Shown: one piece after another, positions 8,630 through 58,986 of the stretch | How positions within the stretch are numbered: position 1 is the first letter of the stretch | How the letters are laid out: each line of letters starts with the position of its first letter | From: Nitrospirota bacterium | GTDB taxonomy: Bacteria > Nitrospirota > Nitrospiria > Nitrospirales > UBA8639 | DNA: 64,000 nt | NCBI GenBank assembly: GCA_027623995.1 | Contig: JAQBUF010000006.1 | Location: 2,895-66,894, forward strand | Reading direction: 5' to 3' | Program-made: the position numbers and the translations under genes | Notes under the pieces: model-generated | Seen by the model: the letters and a program-made list of their open reading frames with translations, nothing else | The model's database searches: none | Told to the model about the DNA's origin: nothing

Positions 8630-10462
8630 ATGGAGTCAGGAATGTCCTATCAGCCCATTGAAAATTACGGCCTCATCGGCAACATGCGAACGACGGCACT
8701 CGTGGGCATGAATGGGTCCATCGATTGGTTTTGCTTCCCACACTTTGACTCTCCCAGTATCTTTGCCGCTATTTTGGATGAGAACAAGGGCGGGCGATTT
8801 CAGATCATGCCTGTCAACTCGAACGCCAAACATAAACAGTTTTATTGGCCGGACACCAATGTCCTGGTCACACGATTTCTTTCATCTCAGGGCGTGGGGC
8901 AAATCATTGATTTCATGCCCGTGGGCCTCAAAGAAACAGACGTCGGCTATCATGGGATCATTCGCCGCGTGCAGGCGATACGTGGAAATCTAAAATTCAA
9001 ACTCGAATGCTCTCCCGCGTTTAACTATGCCCGCGATCAACACACGACCACCCTCACATCAGATGGCGTGCGATTCGACGCCAACGGGTTAAGCCTTCGC
9101 CTAGGGGCAACCATCCCCTTGCAACAAGACGGGACAGGAGTGGTGGCGGAGTTTGAATTACACGAGGGACACGAGCTGAGCTTTGCGCTCCAAGAAGTCG
9201 AGCAGTATAGCGACTGCTGTGTGGCCGTCGCCCAAGACCAGGCCGAGGACCTGTTCCACCAAACCGTGGAATATTGGCGTCGGTGGTTGTCGAAGTGTAC
9301 GTATCGAGGGCGTTGGAGAGAAATGGTGCAGCGTTCCGCACTCACACTCAAACTGCTCACATTTGAACCTACAGGCGCCATCGTGGCTGCACCAACCTGT
9401 AGTCTTCCCGAAGGCATTGGCGGGGCTCGCAATTGGGACTACCGGTACACCTGGATTCGTGATGCCGCCTTCACCTTATATGGGTTGCTCCGCATTGGCT
9501 TCACGACCGAAGCGGAAAAATTCATGCATTTCCTTGAAGCGCGATGTCATGAATTGAAACCTGATGGCTCACTCCAAATCATGTATGGCATCGATGGTCG
9601 CCACGAACTTCCTGAAACCACCTTGGACCATCTTGAGGGGTATCGACAATCTAAACCGGTTCGGGTGGGTAACGGCGCCTATGACCAGCTGCAACTGGAT
9701 ATCTACGGCGAACTGCTTGATTCCGTCTACCTCTACAACAAATACGGCTCGCCCATTTCCTATGATTTATGGAAACATTTACGTCGACTCATCAATTGGG
9801 TCTGCGACAATTGGCATAGGCCGGACGAAGGCGTGTGGGAAGTGCGTGGAGGACAACAACATTTTCTCTACTCCAAACTTATGTGCTGGGTCGCCCTGGA
9901 TCGAGGATTGCGGTTGGCGGATAAACGTTCGTTCCCCGCCGATCGAGATCGTTGGCTCAAAATCCGGGATACGATTTACGAAGAGATTATGGAAAAAGGG
10001 TGGAGCGAGAGTCGCCAGGCGTTTGTCCAACGCTATGGAAGTGAATCGCTAGACGCCGCCAACCTCATGATGCCGCTCGTCTTCTTCGTCTCACCCACCG
10101 ACCCGCGTATGCTCAAGACGTTGGACGCCATTAATCAGCCACCGGAACAAGGCGGACTCGTCGCCAATGCCTTGGTGTATCGATATAACGTGAACGAAAC
10201 GAAAGATGGGCTGGATGGCGAAGAAGGCTCATTTAACATTTGCACGTTTTGGCTGGTCGAAGCCCTCACCAGAGCAGGCCGGACCGACGAAGCACGGCTT
10301 ATGTTTGAACAAATGCTCGGATACGCCAACCACCTTGGCCTCTACGCCGAAGAAACCGGCCACCACGGCGAAGCCCTCGGCAACTTCCCCCAAGCCTTTA
10401 CCCATCTTGCCTTAATTAGCGCGGCGTTCAACTTAGACAGGGCTTTAGGAACACGCGGGTAA
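8630..10462 (+). CDS. Glycoside hydrolase family 15 (trehalase/glucoamylase-like)
   Basis: '[16 protein letters not shown]...GSIDWFC.P.FDSPSIF', '[13 protein letters not shown]', 'DEGVWEVRG', '[13 protein letters not shown]'. Confidence 0.93.
10364..10462 (+). repeat. GH15 3' end, copy 1 (attL-like)
   Basis: First 44 bp (10364-10407) are identical to 13095-13138. The remaining 55 bp are recoded almost entirely synonymously. Confidence 0.9.
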
Positions 10463-10554
10463 ACGCACATCGAGCCCTCTAACCTTCCCCCTCAAATCAA
10501 AGTTTCCACACTAGAAAAATTAGACCGACGACCATGGTGACCATAATAGGCATG

Positions 10555-10638
10555 GGCCTGTTGAATATTTCATGTCCGTGACTCATAGATGCTCCAGATC
10601 AGACGAGCAGCATCAGTGTGAGGAAATGTTCAAAAAAG
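10555..10638. repeat. MITE-like repeat, truncated copy D (tail plus one TIR only)
   Basis: GGCCTGTTGAATATTTC...CATCAGTGTGAGGAAATGTTCAAAAAAG aligns with 12392-12475. Confidence 0.75.
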
Positions 10639-10779
10639 CATGCCCTTGTATAATGCAAGGAAGGGTTGTCGCCCAACTCACACGAGCAGTCTCCTGTCTG
10701 AAGAGAGCATCGCCCACGCAGGAAAAAAACTGTCCCCTCAAGGTAGTGTAAATCTCGGCATGATAGACCGTTTTCCCTG

Positions 10780-10903
10780 TGGGACTCAGCCCGTGACTCA
10801 GCGCAGGTCATCATTCCTCCTTAGTTAATGGAACAGTCATGATAACCAGTTACACAGTTAACTTGACAGGACCGGGAAGTTACGCATCGACAAGGAATTT
10901 CAC
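10780..10903 (-). pseudogene. DUF5615 (PIN-like toxin) remnant; 3' limit approximate
   Basis: GTG overlapping the DUF433 stop (GTGA) reads MKFLVDA*LP, the DUF5615 N-terminus MKFLVDAQLP with CAA>TAA at 10880-10882. It degenerates thereafter. Confidence 0.65.
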
Positions 10904-11139
10904 CCCACCACCGGCTCAATTCGTTGAACACGCGCAAGCCGCGCCGCAAACGCACAGACGGCTTGAAGATCGGCCTCTTCCAAGTCCGGGTAGTCGGCTA
11001 AGATTTGCTTCTTCGACATGCCGCTGCTCATGAGTTCCAATAACCAATCCACCGGATACCGGAGCCCACGGATGCAGGGTTTGCCGTGACAAATCTGAGG
11101 ATCAATGGTGATGCGGGTTAAGAGCTGTGCACTAGGCAT
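10900..11139 (-). CDS. DUF433 family antitoxin
   Basis: 'RITIDPQICHGKPCIRGLRYPV...LELMSSGMS..QILADYPDLEEADLQA'. Confidence 0.92.
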   Translation of the reverse strand: MPSAQLLTRITIDPQICHGKPCIRGLRYPVDWLLELMSSGMSKKQILADYPDLEEADLQAVCAFAARLARVQRIEPVVG

Positions 11140-11620
11140 GGTTCAAGAATATCCCACTTCCACGACCCTGAAAAGAAGGATGAGACAAATGGCTTCAAGG
11201 GGATACCCCAACTAGGGCGGCCCAGGTGGTGAATCAGGCCTTGGTTGCAATAGAGCTGGAGAAGGCTACGGCCAAGACACTTATTGCGCGGATCGAAAAG
11301 GCAGAGAAATTTTCTACATCCAGGGTGTTGCCCTTGCAGGCGCGAGGTCTCTTCGCCCCCTGATCCAATCACGATGGCTCAGAACATCACGGAGTTACTC
11401 CTGAATTGCATCGAAGGGCTCAGGCAATCTTCGCCAAAGAGTCTGATTTGTAAAGACGACTCAGCCGTATCAAACGCGGATAGACACCCAAGACATACCA
11501 CTTTTTGGCAATCGGGATAGAGAGGGCATGCCTACCACCACACAATACTCATGCTTACCCACAATCCATACGGCTTAAAAAGGGAAGCGGCCCCATTGCC
11601 GTCCCCTTTGCCAAAGTTTC

Positions 11621-11956
11621 CTACCGCCCGGCCCGAGCGGCGACGGCAAAATGATAGAAATACCGATCGAGACCGACCAAGTCGCTCCCGTACAGATGGC
11701 CTCCGAACATCGCGTCACAGAGGAACTCCCGCACACGGGTCAGTTCTTTGAGGCGACCCTTCCAGCGAGGATCGCCGATCGTCAGGTCAAGCAGCTCCAG
11801 CGCGCGGTGGAAGGCTTTTTCGCAGGCCTGAGAGTCTTTCTCTCTCCAACGAGCGATACGTCCCACCTCGCTTCCGACATTGCCTAACTGTTCCGCTAAC
11901 GGCATCGTGTGCCATCTCCCGGCCGCCAGTCCTGCATGTTGAGCGGATATTGCCAT
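11621..11956 (-). CDS. Conserved hypothetical helical protein, partner of DUF5674
   Basis: 'RWHTMPLAEQLGNVGSEVGR...RALELLDLTI.DPRW..RLKELTRVRE'. Translationally coupled (TAATG) to DUF5674. Confidence 0.75.
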   Translation of the reverse strand: MAISAQHAGLAAGRWHTMPLAEQLGNVGSEVGRIARWREKDSQACEKAFHRALELLDLTIGDPRWKGRLKELTRVREFLCDAMFGGHLYGSDLVGLDRYFYHFAVAARAGR

Positions 11957-12303
11957 TAGTCCGCCACCAATTGACAGACGATGCGTATGATCGCCTGGCG
12001 AATATCGGGACGTTCGACCGAACGAGAACGATTTCCGCCGGCAGGTCGCACGTTGATCATCGAATCAAATTCGATCCAGTCCTCAGGGGGGTTGTCCGGA
12101 TAGAGGTTGATCCCCCAGAGATTGGCTTGCTGTGAACCCTGTTCCAAGAGCATGGCTTCTTCGTCGGAATGGAGTTCACCCCCAATCGCCATAATCTCCT
12201 GTTCGACGTCCACGACGGCCTTAACCATATCCCCAAACTGGTGCGTGGCCATTTCTCGTATGAACGCTTTGGCTATGGGAATTCGAATGATACTGATTTC
12301 CAT
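11956..12303 (-). CDS. DUF5674 family protein
   Basis: 'MVKAVVDVEQEIMAIGGELHSDEEAMLLEQGSQQANLWGINLYP...IEFDSMINVRP..GNRSR.VE'. Confidence 0.8.
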   Translation of the reverse strand: MEISIIRIPIAKAFIREMATHQFGDMVKAVVDVEQEIMAIGGELHSDEEAMLLEQGSQQANLWGINLYPDNPPEDWIEFDSMINVRPAGGNRSRSVERPDIRQAIIRIVCQLVAD

Positions 12304-12391
12304 GATGCGCCCTGACTCCATGTAAAGGGTCGAAGCCAATACGATTACGAATTTGGCATGGGACTGTCAACCGGATGAGATTATCCTGTGT

Positions 12392-12651
12392 GGCCTGTTG
12401 AATATTTCCTGTTCATTGGCCATAGATGCTTCAGAACGGCAACCGACATCAGTGAGAGGGAATGTTCAAAAAAGTTCGCCCAGCAAGGCCGCAGCCGTTT
12501 TGACGCGCGGAGCGTACTCCCGTACGTGAGCGCGAGCGGTGCAAAGCGCCAAGTCTGCGAGCCCGAAGGTCAGGCAAAATGCCGACTATGCCTGTGCGAG
12601 CCGCCTCGGCAAAGCCAGGGAACGCCGCTGGCGGCTTTTTTCAACATTCCC
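12392..12651. repeat. Nitrospira-type MITE-like repeat, copy B
   Basis: High similarity to the reverse complement of 1046-1309, with the same TIRs. Confidence 0.85.
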
Positions 12652-13094
12652 CTGTGTGGTCTTCATGAGGGACACGCACGGCGGTTGTTTTCTTGTAAGC
12701 TGGTGTGGGTGGTGCCGGTGCTCAATCAGATGTAAGGCGCACTGGAACTAAAGAACGCGCTGACGAAAACGTTTATTGGGCGGGTCGAGAAAGGGAAGAA
12801 TTTTCCTGATGAATTTTCGCGCCCCCCAGCAGCAACATTTGATTGGGCTGGGAATACTCTGACGATGGACGTGAGACCGTAAGTGGTTTAAAGGGGAAAT
12901 CCGAAAGCTCACACATCTCGATGTTGATCGAGTTGCCAGATAATCTTTGGATGCCTGGCAATGCATTGAGTTTCGACCTATTCTTTCGCAAAAACCAATT
13001 CCACTCTTCGTGCAGTTTAGACCGCCAGAGTACGGTGCGGTGCGGTGCGCTCCATCCAATCGAAAACAGGATCCAACAAAACTACAAATTCCAG

Positions 13095-13193
13095 CACGGC
13101 GAAGCCCTCGGCAACTTCCCCCAAGCCTTTACCCATCTGGCGCTCATCAGCGCCGCGTTTAACCTCGATAGAGCACTAGGGTCTCGCGGCTAA
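13095..13193 (+). repeat. GH15 3' end, copy 2 (attR-like displaced end)
   Basis: Encodes [32 protein letters not shown], versus ...GTRG* in the gene. Confidence 0.9.
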
Positions 13194-49486: not shown

Positions 49487-50260
49487 ATGATAATTGCAGA
49501 AACCGAGACCGTTGAGCTATCCACGGCGACTGGCCCAATGCGTAGCTATATTTTTCGACCAGTGGCTGGGGGACGGTATCCCGGGCTCGTGTTGTATTCT
49601 GAGATCTATCAGGTGACTGGACCAATTCGGCGGATCGCGGCGTTCTTGGCTGGTCATGGGTTTGTGGTACTTGTCCCGGAGGTCTACCACGAACTGGAGC
49701 CACCAGGCACAGTTCTGAACTATGATAAACCCGATACCGAGCGTGGCAATCAGCACAAAATCACGAAGCCGCTCTCAAGCTACGACAGTGACGCACGCGC
49801 GGCGTTGGACTTCCTCCACTCGTTTCCACACTGCACGGGAAAACTTGGGGTCATGGGAATTTGCCTTGGCGGGCATTTAGCCTTTCGCGCGGCCATGAAT
49901 AAGGATGTGTTGGCCGGAGTGTGTTTTTACGCCACGGATATCCACACCCATAATTTAGGCAAAGGCCAGCAGGACGATTCCCTGGACCGAGTTGCAGAAA
50001 TTAAGGGAGAACTGCTCATGGGCTGGGGACGACAAGACCCGCATATTCCCCGTGAAGGCCGAGCAGAAATCTACAACGCCCTATCCGACTACGGTGTAAA
50101 CTTCCAATGGCATGAGTTCAATACTGCGCATGCGTTTCTGCGAGATGAAGGCCATCGGTATGACCCCGCAGCAACCCAGATTAGTTATGGCATGATCTTA
50201 GAGCTGCTTAAGCGGAAACTGAGCGAGGGAGACGTCCAGAACAGTTTGTCTTCGGGGTAA
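49487..50260 (+). CDS. Dienelactone hydrolase family protein
   Basis: 'LYSEIYQVTGPIRR.A..LAGHGF', nucleophile elbow 'GICLGG', 'WGRQDPHIP', 'HAFLRDEG.RYD'. Confidence 0.9.
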   Translation: MIIAETETVELSTATGPMRSYIFRPVAGGRYPGLVLYSEIYQVTGPIRRIAAFLAGHGFVVLVPEVYHELEPPGTVLNYDKPDTERGNQHKITKPLSSYDSDARAALDFLHSFPHCTGKLGVMGICLGGHLAFRAAMNKDVLAGVCFYATDIHTHNLGKGQQDDSLDRVAEIKGELLMGWGRQDPHIPREGRAEIYNALSDYGVNFQWHEFNTAHAFLRDEGHRYDPAATQISYGMILELLKRKLSEGDVQNSLSSG

Positions 50261-50392
50261 TAGAAATTGGGGTTAGGGAATAGATGAAGACTCGTTGGTG
50301 CGCTTGACTCTCCACAAAAGATTTGCCCCCTTACCTTTACCGAATAATGTGGGTATTAGGAACGATGGTGAGATATGTTGAGAGAAGACCCT

Positions 50393-52171
50393 TCACAACC
50401 AGAGCAGCCAGATCATGGATATCGTAATAACGGCTACAATGATGTTAACGAAAAGACCCGCCTTCGCAAAGTCGGAAAATCGGTAACTACCGGCGGCCAA
50501 AATCATCATATTTGTCTGATACCCAATCGGTGTAAGAAAGCTAGCAGAAGCCGCAATGGCCACTGTGATAGCGAAGGCTTCAGGAGGTACACCCAGTACC
50601 TGCGAGGCAGCCAGTCCCACGCCTAACATGAGAGCGGCAGCGGCATTGTTTGTAATTAATTCCGTAAGAAGGCTCGTCGCAACATAGACAGCGGCCACCA
50701 CGCCGACGACCCCGAACATGGAGGCTTGGTCCGTCACAAGGTGTGCCACCGCCGCAGCCAATCCGGTGTTCTCAATGGCCTGGCCAAGGCCAAGCGCAGC
50801 GGCAATAATGACCAGAACTGGAATGTCTACCGCCTGGCGAGCATCTCGTCCACTCAAACAACCAGTTACAATCATGGCTAAAGCCCCAATGAAAGCCGTT
50901 GTCACAATATCGGCGACTCCTAAGGCCGCGAAGAAAATGACCCCAGCTAAAATGGCAATGGCGATCGGTGCTTTCCCAACCTGCAACTTGACTTTTTCTT
51001 GCCGTCTTGGTGCCACCAAGTAGAATTCTTCACGGTTTTGATTCCAGCGCCTATCGAAGCCCGTGCGGGCCTCGATAAGCAACAAATCACCGGCTTTGAT
51101 GGGAACGTGGCTTAGTGGTCCCTCAATAGTGGCCTCACGGCGATAGATCCCCAGCACGACCCCTTGATAATTCTCCCGGAAGCGAACTTCATGCAGGCTT
51201 TTGCCGACGAGATTCGACGAGGGAGAAACGACCGCCTCATAAAGAGGCAGCCTAACGTGTTCCGATGTCTCCAGGCTTTCCTTTACCCGCTCCAAGCCCT
51301 GCCTCTCCAGCATCCGTTCCAGAATAGAAACACTACCCAAAAAGGCAAGCACATCTCCTGCATGTACCGCTAACTCTGGGGATGATGGGATGATTTTCCC
51401 TCCCCGCTGCAGATGTACAAGATAGGCATCTTCTAGTGCACGAAGTCCCCCTTCCTCTACCCCGAGTCCGACCAGGGGCGAATTGGGAGTCACACGCAAC
51501 TCAAAAATGCACAGGCGAAGACCGTCCTCGAACCCTGGGCCGTGTTTTTTATGATCTGGAAGTAGTCGGTGTCCAATAACAGTAAAATAGAGGATCACAC
51601 CCAACGCAGCCGGAACCCCAACCCAGGCAAGATCGAATATTCCGAGGCTTTTGTAGCCTGACGCCACCATAAGCCCAGCGACAAGTAGATTCGTCGAAGT
51701 GCCGACCAGAGTCGTCATGCCTCCTACGATGGCCCCGTAGGAAAGTGGAATCATCAGCTTCGACGCGGACACTCCGGTGTTCTCACACCACAGACGTACG
51801 CGTGGAATGAGCATGGCTACAAGAGGGGTGTTGTTGAGAAAGGCCGACATGAACGCCGTGGTCAGCATGAGACGCGCCGTAGCCTCAGGCAAGTTTTTCG
51901 ATTGGGGGAAAATGAGTCGGTCGACGAACTGGAGTGCACCGCTATTCTGGACCCCAGCGGCCACAACAAACAGGGCGCCCACAGCCAGGGGAGCTTTGTT
52001 GGAGAGGCCGGCAAACGCTTCCTCAGGGGAAAGAATGCCGAAAAGAAGGAGCAGTCCCAGGCATCCTAAAAAAATCAAGTCAGGACGTGCGAAATCTGTT
52101 ATCAAAGCCACGAGCATCAGAATAATGATGCCAACTGTCGCCCAAGCATCCCAGCCTAATTCGAGAAACAT
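50393..52171 (-). CDS. SLC13-family (sulfate/dicarboxylate) transporter with TrkA-C domains
   Basis: 'SAFLNNTPLVAMLIP', 'GGMTTLVGTSTNL', two TrkA-C domains, 'ELITNNAAAA', 'TPIGYQTN'. Confidence 0.9.
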   Translation of the reverse strand: MFLELGWDAWATVGIIILMLVALITDFARPDLIFLGCLGLLLLFGILSPEEAFAGLSNKAPLAVGALFVVAAGVQNSGALQFVDRLIFPQSKNLPEATARLMLTTAFMSAFLNNTPLVAMLIPRVRLWCENTGVSASKLMIPLSYGAIVGGMTTLVGTSTNLLVAGLMVASGYKSLGIFDLAWVGVPAALGVILYFTVIGHRLLPDHKKHGPGFEDGLRLCIFELRVTPNSPLVGLGVEEGGLRALEDAYLVHLQRGGKIIPSSPELAVHAGDVLAFLGSVSILERMLERQGLERVKESLETSEHVRLPLYEAVVSPSSNLVGKSLHEVRFRENYQGVVLGIYRREATIEGPLSHVPIKAGDLLLIEARTGFDRRWNQNREEFYLVAPRRQEKVKLQVGKAPIAIAILAGVIFFAALGVADIVTTAFIGALAMIVTGCLSGRDARQAVDIPVLVIIAAALGLGQAIENTGLAAAVAHLVTDQASMFGVVGVVAAVYVATSLLTELITNNAAAALMLGVGLAASQVLGVPPEAFAITVAIAASASFLTPIGYQTNMMILAAGSYRFSDFAKAGLFVNIIVAVITISMIWLLWL

Positions 52172-52487
52172 GTTTTACCTATATCAAGCTTGATGCAGGA
52201 CTGTCTTTGTTCCAGTATATCAATGTCCATTGACCGCCATTATTGTGAGGCAAAACGGCAGAACCCTCTAGGAGGAAGACATGTTGACTTTCCTATAGGC
52301 CGTGCCCAACCCTTGCCCCATCTCCAGAATATCGAGAATTGAGACGCAAAACACATAAAATTGAAATATTCGGCATTGGCAGCCACAAACTTAAGAAAAT
52401 GAATGGGCGGAGTAAGGGTGCCATTCTTGCCCTCACCTTTACTCATGGCTTGGTTTGTCACCCAACCCTCACCCTACCTTTCCCATC

Positions 52488-52676
52488 TCCAACCTTCTGT
52501 ATGCGCGAAACCAAATTCTTTGGTTTAATGTGCAGTTATGCAGGCATAATATCGTCGCCATAGACTTCCCAGTTGACCTTCTCCAAGGCCCTTCGGATGT
52601 TCTCGCGCTCGACTTCGCGTATTTCATCTTCAGTCATGATTTGGGTCTGGCCTGGGCTCAGTGATTTCATTCTTTT
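52488..52676 (-). repeat. Sigma54-activator 3' end, copy 3 (most decayed)
   Basis: Translates [62 protein letters not shown]. Confidence 0.85.
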
Positions 52677-52863
52677 AGCTAATGAGGGCCAAGAGGAAAG
52701 TGTCATATCCTGCAAAAGCACATTTGCAAGGAGGGACCAACCACACCACCGGCACAGAAAAATGCGTTGGCCATGAGAATTTATTAAAAATTGGCCAGGA
52801 CTAGACTGGGTTGACTTGACGAGCAACAAGAGGCCAAGCCTCAGAACCGTTAGCGTTGGCCAA

Positions 52864-53232
52864 TCAACGGCTACGATGAACTTTTGCTGATTCCTCTTTC
52901 AAGACCTTCGCGATAAGCGGTTGCACGGGAGGAATATCTTCTTTGGCGGTTTTCCACAGCACCTGATAGTTTACCCCGAAGTATTCATGGATGAGTTTGT
53001 CCCGCATTCCAGCCATGAGTTTCCAGGGAACATTCGCATGTCGCTTCTTGACGGATGGTGGGATCTTCTTGGCCGCTTCGCCGATAATCTCGAAGGCTCT
53101 GACCACGGCATACATCGTCTTCTGATCTCGTGAAAATTGGCTCCACGTCATACCTGAAATAAATTGCGAGATGTTCTGTGAAGCTTCCAGGATATCGGCC
53201 AGGTAATCAAGAAATTCGCGTTTGCCTGTCAC
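52864..53232 (-). CDS. HepT-like RNase toxin (DUF86/HEPN)
   Basis: 'YLADILEA', 'AVVRAFEIIGEAAK', 'PWK.MAGMRDKLIHEYFGVN...LW'. Confidence 0.92.
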   Translation of the reverse strand: MTGKREFLDYLADILEASQNISQFISGMTWSQFSRDQKTMYAVVRAFEIIGEAAKKIPPSVKKRHANVPWKLMAGMRDKLIHEYFGVNYQVLWKTAKEDIPPVQPLIAKVLKEESAKVHRSR

Positions 53233-53549
53233 AAGCCCACAACCTCACTAAGAATTCTCTGGCCAATCAGAGGTTTGAGCGCCGACCTCATCACCAGGTC
53301 TACTTTGACGCCCAAGAGACTGGATAAATGGCTTTCCAGGTCAATGAACTTAAAGAGGCTTGGCTCCTCAGCAAAATCCACAAGCAAGTCGAGATCGCTG
53401 CCCCGCCGGGGATTTCCTTGGACATACGAGCCGAACACTCCGAGGTATCGGACATGAAACGTCTTTTTCAGCATGGGCATCTGGCCACGCAGGATATCAC
53501 GGTATCGCTGTAGTTTTTTCTGTGCTCCTGCCTCAGAAATCTTTGCCAT
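53229..53549 (-). CDS. MntA-like nucleotidyltransferase antitoxin
   Basis: 'LGVFGSYVQG......SDLDLLVDF', 'LE..L..LLG.KVDLV'; overlaps the DUF86 start. Confidence 0.92.
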   Translation of the reverse strand: MAKISEAGAQKKLQRYRDILRGQMPMLKKTFHVRYLGVFGSYVQGNPRRGSDLDLLVDFAEEPSLFKFIDLESHLSSLLGVKVDLVMRSALKPLIGQRILSEVVGL

Positions 53550-53753
53550 AGCCCAACACTCCTCGAGAGACTGCTTCACTTCAAACCGTACCCACAAAGA
53601 CTACGTTCCATGCCCGATTCTGTCAATATTTTGCATCAGCTAGGGACAACTCAGTTGACCAGTACCATGAAAAAAATGGGGACAGGCAAAAAGGAATGAT
53701 GAGGTTGGGCCTTCCACTACCATAATTTTCATTTATCTTGATTCATTGAATTT

Positions 53754-53960
53754 TCACGCAGGCTTCTCCAACCCCATCTTCTGCATGCGAGAGACCAAGG
53801 TCGTTGGTTTGACACGGAGTAACGCTGCAGCGCCGTCGTCGCCGTAGACTTTCCAGTTGACCTTCTCTAGGGCTCTTCGGATGTTTTCGCGTTCGACGTC
53901 GCGCATTTCGTCTTCGGTCATGATTTCTGTCTGAGCGGGGTTCAGTGATTTTTTCTTTTT
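53754..53960 (-). repeat. Sigma54-activator 3' end, copy 2
   Basis: Open frame [68 protein letters not shown], mostly synonymously diverged from 55018-55224. Confidence 0.92.
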
Positions 53961-53998
53961 AACTAAGAAAAGGACTCGCAGCCACAAATATTATCTGA

Positions 53999-54259
53999 TT
54001 ATGGAAGAGGTTCTATCTTTTCCAAGGGATCAAGACTCTTTGCTTTTTCCCAGTCTGAGAGAAGTTCCTTTTTATGGAGAGAAGCCCATTCAGTGACAAG
54101 ACCGAGGGCACGGGCCGGCAGGCGGCCTGAGAATACGGCGAGCGTATTCACATCGATCAGGGCTTCATGCTCTGCATACTCAGCATGAAAGTGCGGTGGG
54201 TTGTGATCATCGAAATACATTTTGATCACAATCCCGTAAAAGCGGCAGATTTCAGGCAT
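53999..54259 (-). CDS. DUF4160 family protein (TA-associated)
   Basis: 'MPEICRFYGIVIKMYFDDHNPPHFHAEY....ALI......G.LP.RAL.LV.EWA'. Confidence 0.92.
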   Translation of the reverse strand: MPEICRFYGIVIKMYFDDHNPPHFHAEYAEHEALIDVNTLAVFSGRLPARALGLVTEWASLHKKELLSDWEKAKSLDPLEKIEPLP

Positions 54260-54533
54260 TCACGCCTGTCTTCAAGGTAGGAAAAACATCCTCGGGTGAT
54301 TTTCCCGTCAATCGCAGGTAGACGGAATCCTGACACAAATCAAGATCTTCACCCCATATAAGTTCCCCATGGGATCCAATTCGGACCTCCTTGAAAAACT
54401 CCTCATTTTCCCAGGCTTTGAAGACCCCTCTTCCCGCGAGGTCGGAGAAGTCGACCTCGCCCGTTGTTCCATCATCATAGCGAAGCCATAGGCGAAAATT
54501 TTGAAGTGGTTTTATCTCTATGAGTTTTGGCAT
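54252..54533 (-). CDS. DUF2442 family protein (TA-associated)
   Basis: 'IKPL..FRLWLRYDDG..GEVDF..L...GVF..W....F..V.I...G.LIW....DLC.D..Y'. Confidence 0.9.
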   Translation of the reverse strand: MPKLIEIKPLQNFRLWLRYDDGTTGEVDFSDLAGRGVFKAWENEEFFKEVRIGSHGELIWGEDLDLCQDSVYLRLTGKSPEDVFPTLKTGVNA

Positions 54534-54780
54534 ATTTTGGCTCCAATCGTTGGATGATAGCACGCATGTACTATGGCTTCAATTCAGGCGTATAATTCCC
54601 GTTATTCTCCGCCAAAAAAAATGGTGCGGACTTATCCATTCCCCCTTCGCATCCTTAAACAATGATTGAGGCATTTTTGGGATCTTACCGAAACCATGGA
54701 TTTGTCCCTACGGCCATCCAATTCTGGATTCATGGAATTGCCTGTCCATGCCTCCCCCTCCTGCAAGTATTCTTTCTTGG

Positions 54781-54868
54781 TGTAGCTGCACGATCTTATC
54801 GTGCCTTCTTCCCATGCACCAAGGGCTCATGACGCCCGGAAGAGGCAGCATGAGATGCTGCAGCTACA
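54781..54868. repeat. GTAG-type REP doublet, second copy
   Basis: TGTAGCTGCACGAT-CTT-ATCGTGCC ... GGCAGCAT-GAG-ATGCTGCAGCTACA; homologous to 1822-1912. Confidence 0.75.
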
Positions 54869-55017
54869 CAAGAGTCGTTGGCAACGTGTTTACCTCGAAA
54901 GGAGAGGTGCAATCACCTATGAAGGCGAGTACAGAATTATTGGCAACTGATACTCTGCTACCAGAGCCATAAATTCTGTATGATCCCATCTTTTGGTTTT
55001 TAGCTCACCCTCAATTC

Positions 55018-56658
55018 TCACCCCGGCTTTTCCAATCCCATTTTTTGCATGCGCGACACCAACGTTGTTGGTTTCACCCGAAGTAAAGCTGCTGCGCCGT
55101 CGTCGCCGTAGACTTTCCAGCTCACCTTCTCCAGTGCTCTTCGGATGTTCTCGCGTTCGACCTCGCGCATTTCATCTTCGGTCATAATTTCTGCTTGGCC
55201 GGGGTTCAGCGATTTTTTTCTTTTCAATATCGATGGGCGATCTGTTTCAGACATTTTGGGTAATCCAAATTGCAGGTTGGTGCAGCGGGAGGTGATCACT
55301 GCACGCTCGATGACGTTTTGTAATTCACGGATGTTGCCGGGCCAGTCATATTTTTGCAGATCGATGACATGGGCTTGGGTGAGCCTTGGTGGATTGGAGC
55401 AATTCATTTTCTTGCCTGTGAGTTCCAAAAAGTTGGCGGCTAAGAGTGGAATGTCTTCTTTGCGCTCGCGTAATGGCGCGACCTCTAACGGGAACACGTT
55501 TAATCGGTAGTACAGGTCTTGGCGAAACCGTCCGGCTTCGACTTCTTTTTTGAGATCGCGATTCGTTGCGGCGACGATGCGCACATCGACTTGCCTGGTT
55601 CGTTCATCCCCTACCCGCTCGTATTGGTTCTCTTGCAGGACCCGTAAGAGTTTACTTTGGAGATCTAGCGGAATTTCTCCGACTTCATCGAGAAAGAGCG
55701 TTCCACCATCTGCGGCTTCAAACCTTCCGGCTCGATCTCTGAGCGCTCCGGTAAACGCGCCTTTGACATGCCCGAAGAATTCGCTTTCGTACAATTCGCG
55801 TGGAATCGACGCGCAGTTGACTTTGATGAGCGGTTTATTTTTTCGATTGCTACGTTTGTGAATTTCTCTGGCCACGAGTTCTTTGCCTGTGCCGGATTCC
55901 CCGAGAATCAACACATTCGCATCAGTGGGCGCGACCAATTCAATTTGTCGCAACACCGCATGCAGTGCGGGGCTTTGGCCAACGATATCTCCGAAGGCTT
56001 GCGCATCTAGGACCTCTTCACGCAAAAACGTGTTTTCTAATTTCAGTTGCTCTTGCAGGCGTTCAATTTCATCGAACGCTTTCGCATTAGTGATAGCCAC
56101 AGCCACATGATCGGCAATCATTCGTAACCACGTTGGGGCATCTTCGGTAATGGGCGCGCGGGTAAAGACGGCTAGCACGCCTAAGATCTCTCCTTGGTAC
56201 ATAATGGGTTGTCCATGGAATCCGTGGATGCCTTCTTGCTTGGCCCAATCCTGTCTTGCGATCCAAGTCTTGTCCTCTGTCATTTCAGGTATGATCACGG
56301 ATTCTCCGGTTCCACCAATACGGCCAACCTTATAAGAACCAATCGGAAACCGGCGAAAATGCCCATTCAATCCATTCCATTGTTCATCGGGATTGACCAC
56401 TGAATTGCCGGCACTGGCGACCAAGTGCAAACAGGCTGTTTGATCGGGACAGTCCTCACGCATTCGACAATTCCCACACACATCACCCGGTCGCTTTAAC
56501 CAAATGCGGACCAAGGCAACCTCATCACGCTGAGCCATCCGGTTCACGATCATTTTAAGTAATTCATCGAGCGAGCGTTGCTGGGCGATATCCAACACCA
56601 GACATTTAAACGCTGCGAATTCAGTCGGACAGATTTTCTCTGGTTCCATCTTTTCCAT
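55018..56658 (-). CDS. Sigma54-dependent activator (Cys-rich GAF, AAA+, Fis HTH; FhlA-like)
   Basis: '[11 protein letters not shown]', 'GAFTGA', 'LFLDEVGE', '[10 protein letters not shown]'; GAF domain with CX2CX5CX5C. Confidence 0.93.
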
Positions 56659-56669
56659 ATTTTTGGGCC

Positions 56670-56687
56670 TCCACGAAGTTTCGTGGA
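56670..56687. promoter_or_regulatory. Putative enhancer/UAS palindrome
   Basis: TCCACGAA-GT-TTCGTGGA, ~100 bp upstream of the sigma54 promoter. Confidence 0.5.
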
Positions 56688-56789
56688 TTATAGCTTAGAT
56701 CTGACTCGCAACGGAAGTTCGTGTTTACGGCAATGCGTATTCATCAAACTTTACTACAATAAAACAATTAGTTATGAAATTTTCATGTT

Positions 56790-56805
56790 TGGCACGTGAA
56801 TTGGA
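56790..56805 (+). promoter_or_regulatory. Sigma54 -24/-12 promoter
   Basis: TGGCACG-TGAA-TTGGA versus consensus TGGCACG-N4-TTGC(A/T), with one mismatch at -12; upstream of the CMD operon. Confidence 0.6.
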
Positions 56806-56874
56806 ATAGAAGAGCTTTATAGACACGATTATGAAAAGCAATTCACACCAAATTTTTCAAAAAGGAAACACACC

Positions 56875-57420
56875 ATGACACGTTTACCAGCCATCGATCC
56901 TGAAACCGCGACGGGCCAAGCCAAACAATTATTGGACGGTGTGCAGAAGAAGCTCGGGTTCACCCCCAACATTTTGCGCACCATGGCCAACTCACCCGCC
57001 GTGCTTCAGGGCTACCTCAACTTTTCAACTGCGTTGAGCAAAGGTTCGCTGTCTCCAAAATTGAGAGAACAGATTGCCCTGGTCGTCGCACAAAATAACG
57101 AATGCGAATACTGCCTTGCGGCGCATGCGGCCATCGGTCGCACGGTAGGCTTAAGCGAGGAAGCGATTCGTGATAGCCGACGAGGGGAATCTCCGGATGC
57201 TAAAGAGGCCGCGGTGTTGGATTTTGCTAGCACTCTCGTTGTCAATCGTGGATGGGTCACGGATGCGGAAATTGCCAAGCTACGCAAAGCCGGCGTGACT
57301 GAAGGCGAGATTGCTGAGATTATCGCCAACGTCTCACTGACCTTATTTACCAATTACCTTAACCACGTTGCACAAACTGAAATCGATTTCCCAGCCGTCG
57401 AAGCATTAGCGGTGGCGTAA
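56875..57420 (+). CDS. AhpD/carboxymuconolactone decarboxylase-family peroxidase-like protein
   Basis: 'LREQIALVVA..NECEYCLAAH' (CxxC plus His). Confidence 0.9.
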   Translation: MTRLPAIDPETATGQAKQLLDGVQKKLGFTPNILRTMANSPAVLQGYLNFSTALSKGSLSPKLREQIALVVAQNNECEYCLAAHAAIGRTVGLSEEAIRDSRRGESPDAKEAAVLDFASTLVVNRGWVTDAEIAKLRKAGVTEGEIAEIIANVSLTLFTNYLNHVAQTEIDFPAVEALAVA

Positions 57421-57445
57421 CCACATTTAAAGGAGGACACCCAAA

Positions 57446-57811
57446 ATGAGCACTCAACTTTCAATCAATCTCGAAGACAGACTCGAAGATTTATTTTCTT
57501 ACATTCGTGAGGGTCGCATCCTCGATGCACTTAACGATTTTTATGTGGAAGATGCCGTGATGCAGGAAAACACCCAGCCGCCCACTGTGGGTCGCGCTGC
57601 CAATCTCGAACGTGAGCAACAATTCCTGAACACGGTCAAAGAATGGAACCGCTTTGATGTTATCGCCAAAGGCATCGGCGACAACGTGACTTTTTATGAA
57701 ACCGTGATGGATTGGGTGACCACGGATGGAACACCCGTTCATGTGGAACAGGTCGTTGTTGCCAAATGGCAAGACGGGAGGATTCTCCACGAGCGTTATT
57801 ATCATTCATAA
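57446..57811 (+). CDS. SnoaL/NTF2-like protein
   Basis: 'DAL..FY.EDAVMQEN......G...N..RE', 'QVVVAKWQDG.I.HERYY'. Confidence 0.8.
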   Translation: MSTQLSINLEDRLEDLFSYIREGRILDALNDFYVEDAVMQENTQPPTVGRAANLEREQQFLNTVKEWNRFDVIAKGIGDNVTFYETVMDWVTTDGTPVHVEQVVVAKWQDGRILHERYYHS

Positions 57812-57885
57812 GCTCTCCTGCCCATGAATGAAAAACAGAGACAAATCCAGAAATACCATTCTAAAAATTTAAAAGGAGAACAATC

Positions 57886-58986
57886 ATGACAACCGCAACC
57901 TTACAAGACACCACTCACAAGTCGTCTCAACAGACAGCACCAGCAAAAACCATGAAGGCCGCGGTGCTTCGTCAGTTCGGAGATCCAGAGGTATTAAAGT
58001 ATGAAGAAATCGACACGCCCAAACCCAAACCCGGCCATGTCCTTATCAAAGTACTGGCAGCAGGGCTCAATCGTCTCGACCATTACCTTCGCGAAGGATC
58101 GGTCATGCCCGATCTTCCGCTTCCGCATATCCTTGGTGTGGATGCGGTGGGTGAAGTTGTGGAGTTAGGTGAAGGCGTCACCGGCCTCAACATTGGGGAG
58201 CGCGTGATTCCGGCTGCGGGATTTACTCTACGCGAGGAAGATGATGGCAATCGGCCTTTAGCCAAATCCGCGAGTTTTGTGGTTCCGGGCGTACATCTTT
58301 GGGGATCTTATGCCCAGTATATGGAAGTCCCCGCCCGATGGGCCGTGAAGGATGAGACGGGTCGGTCTCCAGCAGAAGTCGCTACGCTACCTGTTGTCCT
58401 TGGCACCTCTGTACGAGCGATTAAGCAAGTGGGTGAGGTGAAAGCCGGTGATACCGTACTCGTCACCGCCGGGGCCTCAGGTTCAGGCAGCATGCACATT
58501 CAAGTGGCCAAAGCCTTGGGTGCCAGGGTTGCCGCAACGGTTCGGGATGATGTGAAAGGTGAATATGTGAAATCCCTTGGCGCGGATCTCGTCATTAACA
58601 CGCGAAAAGAAAATATGGTGGAACGCGTGAGGGCTTGGACAGGAGGTCTGGGTGTCGATGTGGCTATCGACAATGTGGGCGGCGAGGAGTTGGCCAAAAC
58701 CATTGATGCAGTCCGTCCATTCGGAATCGTCGTAGCCTACGGCTTTGCCGCCGGCGCGGAAGCGACCTTTAACGTACGTGATTTCTTTTTCACGCAAAAA
58801 CAACTTCGGGGCACTATCTTTGCTGATCCCGAAGATTTGCAATGGGGCCTTGAGCAGGTTCGACTTGGAACAATCAAACCGGCACTTGATCGAACCTTCC
58901 CGCTTAGTCAAGCCGCCGAAGCTCATAGATTTTTGGCGACGAATCAAGTGAAAGGCAATTTTGTGTTGCTGCCATGGGCAGAATAA
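57886..58986 (+). CDS. MDR-family quinone oxidoreductase / Zn-independent ADH-like
   Basis: 'FGDPEVL.YEE...P.P..GHVLIKV.AAGLN.LD', 'VLVTAGASGSG', 'QVKGNFVL'. Confidence 0.88.
   Translation: MTTATLQDTTHKSSQQTAPAKTMKAAVLRQFGDPEVLKYEEIDTPKPKPGHVLIKVLAAGLNRLDHYLREGSVMPDLPLPHILGVDAVGEVVELGEGVTGLNIGERVIPAAGFTLREEDDGNRPLAKSASFVVPGVHLWGSYAQYMEVPARWAVKDETGRSPAEVATLPVVLGTSVRAIKQVGEVKAGDTVLVTAGASGSGSMHIQVAKALGARVAATVRDDVKGEYVKSLGADLVINTRKENMVERVRAWTGGLGVDVAIDNVGGEELAKTIDAVRPFGIVVAYGFAAGAEATFNVRDFFFTQKQLRGTIFADPEDLQWGLEQVRLGTIKPALDRTFPLSQAAEAHRFLATNQVKGNFVLLPWAE

Follow-up and report, generated by a model that had tools for sequence, protein, structure and literature searches.

The window analysed here is a 64,000-nucleotide (nt) stretch of a metagenome-assembled genome of the Nitrospirota (G000; 3.13 Mb, 49% G+C; contig C105). 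In it, the gene for a sigma-54-dependent activator is followed by two displaced copies of its own 3' end, and each interval between successive copies holds one toxin-antitoxin (TA) gene pair. We slightly favour the view, at a probability of roughly 0.55, that this is a recombinase-free hot spot, at which homology-guided import has led small TA/defence cassettes to accumulate behind a conserved gene. Sequence comparison of related loci shows the order of events, the foreign origin of the tails, movement of the native tail along with the DNA behind it, and variation in cargo and boundaries. That RecA-type homologous recombination does the joining, we infer.

The array and its host gene comprise the following features.

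55018..56658, minus strand: sigma-54-dependent activator gene, host of the duplicated tail (open reading frame (ORF), 546 aa)
55013..55245, minus strand: tail copy 1, the working 3' end, consisting of the last ~70 codons (helix-turn-helix (HTH) domain HTH_8) plus 5 nt beyond the stop
54670..54990, no strand assigned: dispersed repeat of ~320 nt resembling a miniature inverted-repeat transposable element (MITE), between tail copy 1 and DUF2442
54252..54563, minus strand: DUF2442 gene, partner of DUF4160 (PF10387 at 6e-10)
53999..54259, minus strand: DUF4160 gene (86 aa), with an 8-nt overlap with DUF2442 (PF13711 at 2.5e-22)
53749..53985, minus strand: tail copy 2, displaced and intact (77-aa ORF at 53754-53987 with an HTH_8 match)
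53229..53597, minus strand: MNT-type nucleotidyltransferase antitoxin gene (PF01909 and PF18765, both at about 1e-11)
52864..53232, minus strand: HepT (HEPN RNase) toxin gene, with a 4-nt overlap with MNT (PF01934 at 2.8e-27)
52465..52695, minus strand: tail copy 3, displaced and decayed (71-77% identity to copies 1 and 2; blastn E 1e-32 to 1e-35)

A repeat search and blastn over the whole genome identified three direct copies of the activator 3' end (55013-55229, 53749-53965 and 52465-52681). The repeat is ~217-230 nt long, the copies are spaced by 1264 and 1284 nt, and no fourth copy of the tail was found in the 3.13-Mb genome by blastn. Copy 2 is 85.6% identical to the working tail (E 1e-65), and the longest exact match between copies 1 and 2 is 27 nt. 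The DUF2442/DUF4160 pair and the MITE-like repeat lie between copies 1 and 2, and the MNT/HepT pair lies between copies 2 and 3. An earlier, sequence-only reading of this DNA had described three tail copies bracketing DUF2442/DUF4160 and MNT/DUF86 pairs, and this arrangement is borne out by the repeat search, blastn and Pfam. ORFs in this part of the contig belong to the activator, the TA pairs and a CitMHS transporter.

Congeners allow the units to be ordered in time. Below, L-numbers denote loci of the orthologous activator gene in relatives, and G005 (L023) and G006 (L021) are congeners of G000. In G005, the gene is followed by MNT/HepT and a tail remnant, a single cassette. The stretch of G000 that runs from copy 2 through the spacer, MNT and HepT is collinear over 897 nt with the gene end, spacer, MNT and HepT of G005. 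Because G005 is collinear from copy 2 onward and holds one cassette only, the unit nearest the gene, DUF2442/DUF4160 with copy 1, arrived more recently. Over a 245-nt 3' part, HepT is about 83% identical between G000 and G005, whereas the remnants of the two genomes are 70% identical, a difference that fits remnants being each host's own, neutrally decaying tail. On this basis, copy 3 would be the original tail of the locus, the MNT/HepT unit would have come in with the tail that is now copy 2, and the DUF2442/DUF4160 unit would have followed with copy 1, a MITE landing inside it later.

Codon comparison bears on where the tails come from. Copy 2 is a 68-codon open frame that differs from copy 1 by 24 synonymous and 6 non-synonymous changes, corresponding to a synonymous divergence (dS) of 0.93 and a ratio of non-synonymous to synonymous divergence (dN/dS) of 0.04. 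Orthologous tails among four species of the genus have diverged to the same degree, with dS values of 0.9-1.5 and dN/dS values of 0.05-0.09. A duplicate formed in situ and left unselected would hold several-fold more non-synonymous changes than the 6 observed, which argues that copy 2 is not such a duplicate, and its almost purely synonymous divergence indicates that, until recently and through almost the whole time since the two copies separated, it served as the end of a functioning gene. The lineages from which copies 1 and 2 derive are about species-level apart, and we read copy 1 as the youngest imported tail and copy 2 as a former working end. Copy 3 contains an in-frame stop and a 1-nt insertion, and its dN/dS is raised (0.14-0.16); hence the gradient of decay away from the gene is real. 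The sequence-only reading had proposed just this, with copy 2 open and mostly synonymously diverged and copy 3 stopped, and the codon comparison agrees. It had also proposed that each arrival swaps the HTH of the activator. Such a swap has physically taken place, but it alters only 5 of 68 residues and is thus almost silent. The working tail of L026 and its own remnant behave in the same manner as copies 1 and 2, with a dS of 0.77 and a dN/dS of 0.18.

Displaced tails also occur behind this gene in other Nitrospirales. Each relative's locus was scanned with its own tail, and loci were counted if at least 1 kb of downstream sequence was available (n = 34). Nine of these 34 loci, in addition to that of G000, carry displaced tails, and two remnants each are present in G000, L026, L028 and L039. 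Cargo is of at least seven types among G000 and the nine related loci, and includes the following.

L026, L037 and L034: DUF2442/DUF4160
L028: DUF4258 pair and XRE/Fic pair
L035: RelA/SpoT-like pair
L139: PIN protein
L043: large ATPase
L039: RapA-like helicase

A 35-nt native downstream sequence follows the stop codon of the gene in L032, L033 and L039; in L035 and L037 it follows the remnant, not the gene. It follows that the remnant at L035 and L037 is the native tail, and that the new tail and its cargo were placed ahead of it. Empty sites were also found. G006 (L021) and G002 (L022) have a single tail, and the site that is filled in L035 and L037 is vacant in L032 and L033. L028 holds three stacked tail alleles (...VKV*, ...QKSR* and ...EKTY*) around its DUF4258 and XRE/Fic pairs and is an independent replicate of the three-tail stack in G000. 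In L026, L037 and L028, the working tail and the remnant end in different C-terminal alleles. The idea that successive units of ~1.0-1.3 kb, each a replacement tail plus a TA pair, entered behind the gene body and moved older tails outward is thus supported by several lines of evidence, namely the collinearity with G005, the purifying selection on copy 2, the native downstream DNA at L035 and L037, the stack at L028 and the variability of the cargo.

Some of the related loci speak to recombination within the gene itself. L035 and L033 share a patch of 95-100% identity over the first ~600 nt of the activator gene, against a background of ~85% in the flanks and the 3' half. Judged by this identity profile, the patch is a recent inter-lineage homologous recombination tract in this gene. 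We rejected the mosaic as a case of a foreign 3' half; it is instead a highly similar 5' patch, and it gives no position for the left-hand crossover of the cassette event. The pair L026 and L037 was likewise set aside as evidence of transfer, since gene, tail and cargo are equally diverged (~87%) and the cassette was probably inherited vertically between them. Relative to the G000 cassette, the conserved part of theirs is the two ORFs only.

Two further loci deserve description. At L039 (9845-12628), a full-length gene for a RapA-like SNF2 helicase (927 aa), a housekeeping-type gene that may have been moved as cargo, lies between the activator stop and the tail remnant, and a second tail remnant is found 2.2 kb beyond the first. 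At L021 (contig C1 of G006), a convergent dienelactone-hydrolase gene lies beside the activator, and its last 196 nt are doubled (10286-10481 and 11383-11578, 85%). These copies bracket a DUF433-like/Mut7-C-like TA-like pair; the same intergenic space has been colonised from the other side.

Had a fixed insertion site been used, as the sequence-only reading proposed, orthologous loci should share one junction. Left boundaries, measured in nt from the stop for 13 remnants of the activator gene, fall at about -68 to -80, -108, -125, -155, -175, -178, -230 and -258. They vary even where the type of cargo is the same (about -230 in G000, at least -250 in L026 and about -170 in L037) and even inside apparent clusters. 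These data argue against a fixed site; the number and type of cassettes do vary among orthologous loci, as anticipated, but the junction is not constant. The related claim that all three ends begin at the same point holds in part. The starts of the G000 copies and of the G005 remnant agree to about 10-20 nt, beside an A-rich run (AAAAGAAAAAAATC), with a left boundary of about -230 in copies 2 and 3 and in the G005 remnant, but this agreement is restricted to the genus and other relatives differ widely. The shared boundary may have been inherited with the unit, or may reflect a preferred break next to the A-run. Comparison with orthologues reveals weak homology of the copies to the gene over ~15-20 nt upstream of the sequence AAAAGAA. 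Further upstream, local alignment of copies 2 and 3 to the gene is no better than that of shuffled sequences, and copy 3 is dissimilar to the gene upstream of about -230. The string TTAG.T, which the sequence-only reading noted just upstream of copies 2 and 3, aligns with the gene's own Leu-Leu codons (TTATTG in a congener). We therefore regard it as homologous coding sequence and not as a junction motif.

Searches for the machinery of a site-specific system were negative. PF00589 gave 13 matches to tyrosine recombinases in the whole genome, none of them on contig C105, and no integrase was found in or beside the occupied loci (about 22 examined). Across 50000-58000, an inverted-repeat search (of limited sensitivity, no dedicated attC model being used) returned the MITE palindrome and one chance pair and no attC-like palindrome; the cassette ends abut gene-tail copies, not attC. 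Apart from the tails and the MITE, no cassette-end sequence from 52200-55020 recurs in the genome, and no core sequence is common to the junctions of the dozen other target genes described below. There is no match to Rfam or to a structured RNA at the locus, and promoter and terminator scans were uninformative. The integron-like, site-specific system inferred earlier is thus left with no junction motif, no recombinase on the contig and no attC-like palindromes. No recombinase was found beside any array; the 13 tyrosine recombinase genes of the genome lie elsewhere.

One element of the previously proposed array order, a doublet of repetitive extragenic palindromic (REP) sequences, has to be redefined. 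It is a MITE-like repeat of ~320 nt with an internal 27-nt inverted repeat (54780-54869). Its 113 blastn matches are distributed over 53 of the 110 contigs, and 12 matches, at 250 nt or more, are near full length. This element falls outside the logic of the cassettes and was inserted later into the DUF2442/DUF4160 unit. The MITE family is abundant across the genome. In G005 (contig C149, L023), HepT is broken by an insertion of ~180 nt, at about 1030-1210 on the plus strand of the locus, which is bounded by terminal inverted repeats of ~28 nt (CGGGTCCGTAAGGAAATAAGTCGTACATT ... AATGTACGACTTATTTCCTTACGGACCC). This looks like a different MITE, one that would have inactivated the toxin.

The same architecture is present at other genes of this genome. 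Self-comparison of the genome, a scan of the kind that the sequence-only reading had called for, brought up 12 or more further genes that have a second copy of their final 57-282 nt at a distance of 0.5-4 kb downstream, with the homology ending at the stop codon. The cargo between the copies includes VapBC (three loci), HicAB (two loci), HigBA, BrnTA, DUF4143 ATPases (two), an AlbA_2/Schlafen-like gene, ORF6N and a few non-TA genes, and the host genes include a GH15 gene in this window and an apparent FtsH gene. That the same scars recur in relatives and at a dozen other genes suggests that the units spread by ordinary homologous recombination rather than through an integron-like enzyme.

Three of these loci illustrate the range. 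For the GH15 glucoamylase gene, whose islet the sequence-only reading had also pointed to, the final 103 nt (10360-10462) have a second copy at 13091-13193 with 83% identity (window positions 8630-13193 overall), and the two copies enclose a 2.6-kb islet that contains a DUF433 gene and a DUF5674-like pair. On contig C81 (10106-12513), three tail copies of a 610-aa gene, the end of which reads like FtsH, surround a HesB-like gene and a DUF4143 ATPase. On contig C69 (15356-23875), the tail of a 1033-aa gene occurs four times within 8.4 kb, and the copies are separated by a BrnT/BrnA pair and by genes that seem ordinary.

Homology-guided import could proceed as follows. Incoming DNA from a related Nitrospirales lineage would contain the last ~70-260 nt of the orthologous activator gene and then the cargo, and the general recombination machinery of the host would cross it into the resident tail. 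The imported tail would complete the gene, while the resident tail and all that lies behind it would be shifted to the far side of the cargo. Repeats of this event at the working gene would build a stack with the youngest unit beside the gene, and the older tails would decay. As for the geometry, a circle released from another array might enter by a single crossover, the donor's remnant might serve as the right-hand arm of a two-arm crossover, or one homologous anchor might be combined with an illegitimate join. An exact match of 27 nt is near the minimum that RecA-type recombination needs, and both the 27-nt block shared by copies 1 and 2 and the tract shared by L035 and L033 fit this mode of import. 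A more far-reaching version, which we offer tentatively and rate well below even odds, is that the TA/defence cassettes of the Nitrospirales act as 'natural knock-in constructs', in which the working and the displaced tail serve as portable homology arms and no recombinase of their own is needed. Such a cassette could integrate into any genome with the gene, regardless of the sequence behind it, and could then stack, replace another cassette or pop out as a circle.

Several observations weigh against homology-guided import. Recombination between segments of 70-250 nt that are only 80-85% identical is inefficient, and the first placement of each type of cargo directly after a stop codon is left unexplained. 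Chance is an uncomfortable explanation for the starts of three within-genus remnants (copies 2 and 3 and that of G005) falling within ~10-20 nt. Sliding-window identity against five relatives, all of which are 75-90% identical throughout and thus too distant, revealed no clear donor patch in the G000 gene. A scan of metagenome contigs recovered two close relatives only, both cut off at the gene end, and hence no close strain with enough flank for a presence/absence comparison. Finally, any of the 13 tyrosine recombinase genes elsewhere in the genome may encode an enzyme that acts in trans.

This last point leads to a different explanation, a site-specific cassette system whose recombinase is encoded elsewhere, whose core lies at the start of the tail, and whose circular cassettes bring the replacement tail with them. 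The agreement among the G000 copies and the congener remnant beside AAAAGAAAAAAATC and the gene-proximal position of the youngest unit, which recalls integrons, are both in keeping with such a system, as is the supply of recombinases. We nevertheless consider it unlikely, given that the boundary ranges from about -68 to -258 nt across the family, even within apparent clusters, that the dozen other target genes have no junction core in common, that attC-like inverted repeats and conserved cassette ends were not found, and that no recombinase was found on the contig or beside any array. Homologous crossover uptake, which the sequence-only reading had named as its alternative, fits the data better than does a site-specific system.

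The units might instead be the wrecks of integrase-bearing islands or prophages that entered the 3' ends of genes and lost everything but an addictive TA module. Replacement of the 3' end of a protein gene by an integrating element is well established (e14 and icd), TA modules resist deletion, and the repeat lengths seen here are within the range known for such att sites. However, 10 activator loci and about 12 other loci with tail duplications contain no integrase, integrase fragment or phage gene, the units are uniformly small (0.5-3 kb), and the same cargo occurs with different boundaries in G000, L026 and L037, all of which makes this origin rather improbable. We give still less credence to duplication in situ, by long target duplication or unequal crossing-over, with the extra tails retained as small Fis-like HTH proteins. 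Copy 2 and the L026 remnant are indeed intact ORFs (77 and 84 aa) that include the whole of HTH_8, and the remnants of L035 and L139 are ~95% identical to their own genes, as would be expected of a fresh target duplication. Most remnants, though, are decaying, with stops or indels in copy 3, the G005 remnant, the first L028 remnant (r1), L037 and L039. The extreme C-termini and stops of working tails and remnants represent different alleles (KVG* versus KTH*), and copy 2 is collinear with the working tail of the congener.

For the host gene itself, the domain order is GAF, AAA+ sigma-54 interaction domain, AAA lid and Fis-type HTH (Pfam; PF00158 at 3.4e-75, with matches to GAF and AAA_lid_14, the HTH being PF02954). 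Its congener orthologues are 87-88% identical, and the nearest named relatives are metagenome-assembled genomes of the Nitrospirales/Nitrospiraceae. The closest named relative of the activator (L029, JAJFJH010000326.1; 88%) is labelled 'Nitrosomonas sp.', a bin label that is probably wrong, since the other close relatives are all Nitrospirales. Among the cargo genes, DUF2442 likely starts at the ATG at 54533, where its homology to the L026/L037 cassette begins, and MNT likely starts at the ATG at 53549. DUF4160 is 79% identical at the nucleotide level to its counterpart in the cassette behind the same gene in L026, and an orthologous MNT cassette is present in G005.

Free-living bacteria contain dozens of chromosomal TA modules, and how these move without a transposase or integrase is poorly explained. 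The picture that emerges here is a coherent one, in which cassettes bring a spare gene tail, are addressed by homology and accumulate as dated layers. If general, it would explain why TA modules often lie directly behind conserved genes, displaced tails would provide a molecular clock of cassette turnover, and conserved gene tails would be predictable landing pads for defence genes. A side effect is that the DNA-binding domain of a regulator can be swapped repeatedly for foreign alleles. If the cassettes do behave as knock-in constructs, they would amount to an analogue of the integron that is addressed by homology and works without a recombinase, and TA modules in general could colonise chromosomes in this way.

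How does this array compare with known systems? Like integron arrays and clusters of attC sites lacking an integrase (CALINs), it is an ordered, TA-rich stack of small cassettes with the newest at the entry point. Unlike them, it has no intI and no attC, its repeats are its own gene tails, and each locus has a different protein-coding tail as its point of entry. In E. coli, e14 and phage 21 replace the 3' end of icd, and the target gene stays intact. Tandem accretion of cis-mobilizable elements (CIMEs) similarly involves a replacement 3' end, a pseudo-end left behind, tandem pile-up and integrase-less derivatives, and depends on a tyrosine integrase and a fixed att core. The arrays described here resemble these in that the gene is kept intact by a replacement end, the displaced end remains, and units pile up in tandem; they differ in having no integrase in the array and no fixed boundary. 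The locus thus lacks the defining properties of the integron and the fixed core of att-site accretion, for which an integrase would have to act in trans.

A closer parallel may be drawn with insertion accompanied by long target duplication, which Nobusato et al. (2000) are said to have described for restriction-modification (RM) gene complexes. In the published cases, RM gene complexes without a mobility gene are flanked by direct repeats of about 40-500 bp that are single in the genome with the empty site; the mechanism is unknown, with an origin in double-strand breaks or recombination suspected (Furuta, Abe & Kobayashi 2010, PMC2853133). By the criteria of Furuta et al., the likeness is substantial: the insert is smaller than 20 kb, mobility genes are absent, the direct repeats exceed 30 bp, and the repeat is single at the empty site of related genomes (G006, G002, L032 and L033). 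The published repeats, however, are near-identical copies of the target, whereas those at the activator gene are diverged to the level of orthologues and under purifying selection, which implies that one copy was imported and not duplicated in place. Moreover, the cargo here is TA rather than RM, the repeats are anchored at the stop codon, and stacks are formed.

The displacement arrays of rhs, cdiA and type VI secretion system (T6SS) effector-immunity loci provide a third point of reference. In these, an acquired module recombines into the 3' part of a conserved gene and displaces the old end with its companion; repeats of the process build arrays of orphan ends without a dedicated recombinase, for which homology-facilitated illegitimate recombination is a proposed mechanism (Kirchberger et al. 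2017, PMC5361080). Sequential displacement at rhs loci was reported by Jackson et al. (2009, PMC2935791), as cited by Kirchberger et al. (PMC5361080). Both these arrays and long target duplication have in common with the present case a logic linked to homology and free of a recombinase. As in the displacement arrays, displaced 3' fragments are stacked downstream with companion gene sets that were acquired horizontally (G000 and L028, with two remnants also in L039). The imported 3' end of an rhs or T6SS gene, in contrast, is a variable toxin domain, and its cargo is the cognate immunity gene. In the present arrays, the exchanged end of the activator encodes a conserved Fis-type HTH that differs at 5 of 68 residues, the two-gene TA modules of the cargo are independent of the tail, and ordinary genes with housekeeping or regulatory roles serve as hosts. 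The literature searched yielded no published account of stacked TA cassettes lying between displaced ends of housekeeping genes. The suggestion that this is an undescribed system of minimal TA cassettes at gene 3' ends is upheld as regards the architecture, which is present at 12 or more genes, but not as regards an integron-like enzyme. Relative to the displacement arrays and to long target duplication, what sets the present case apart is the use of a conserved, non-toxin tail as the address, tails that are diverged to the level of orthologues, and an independent TA/defence cargo.

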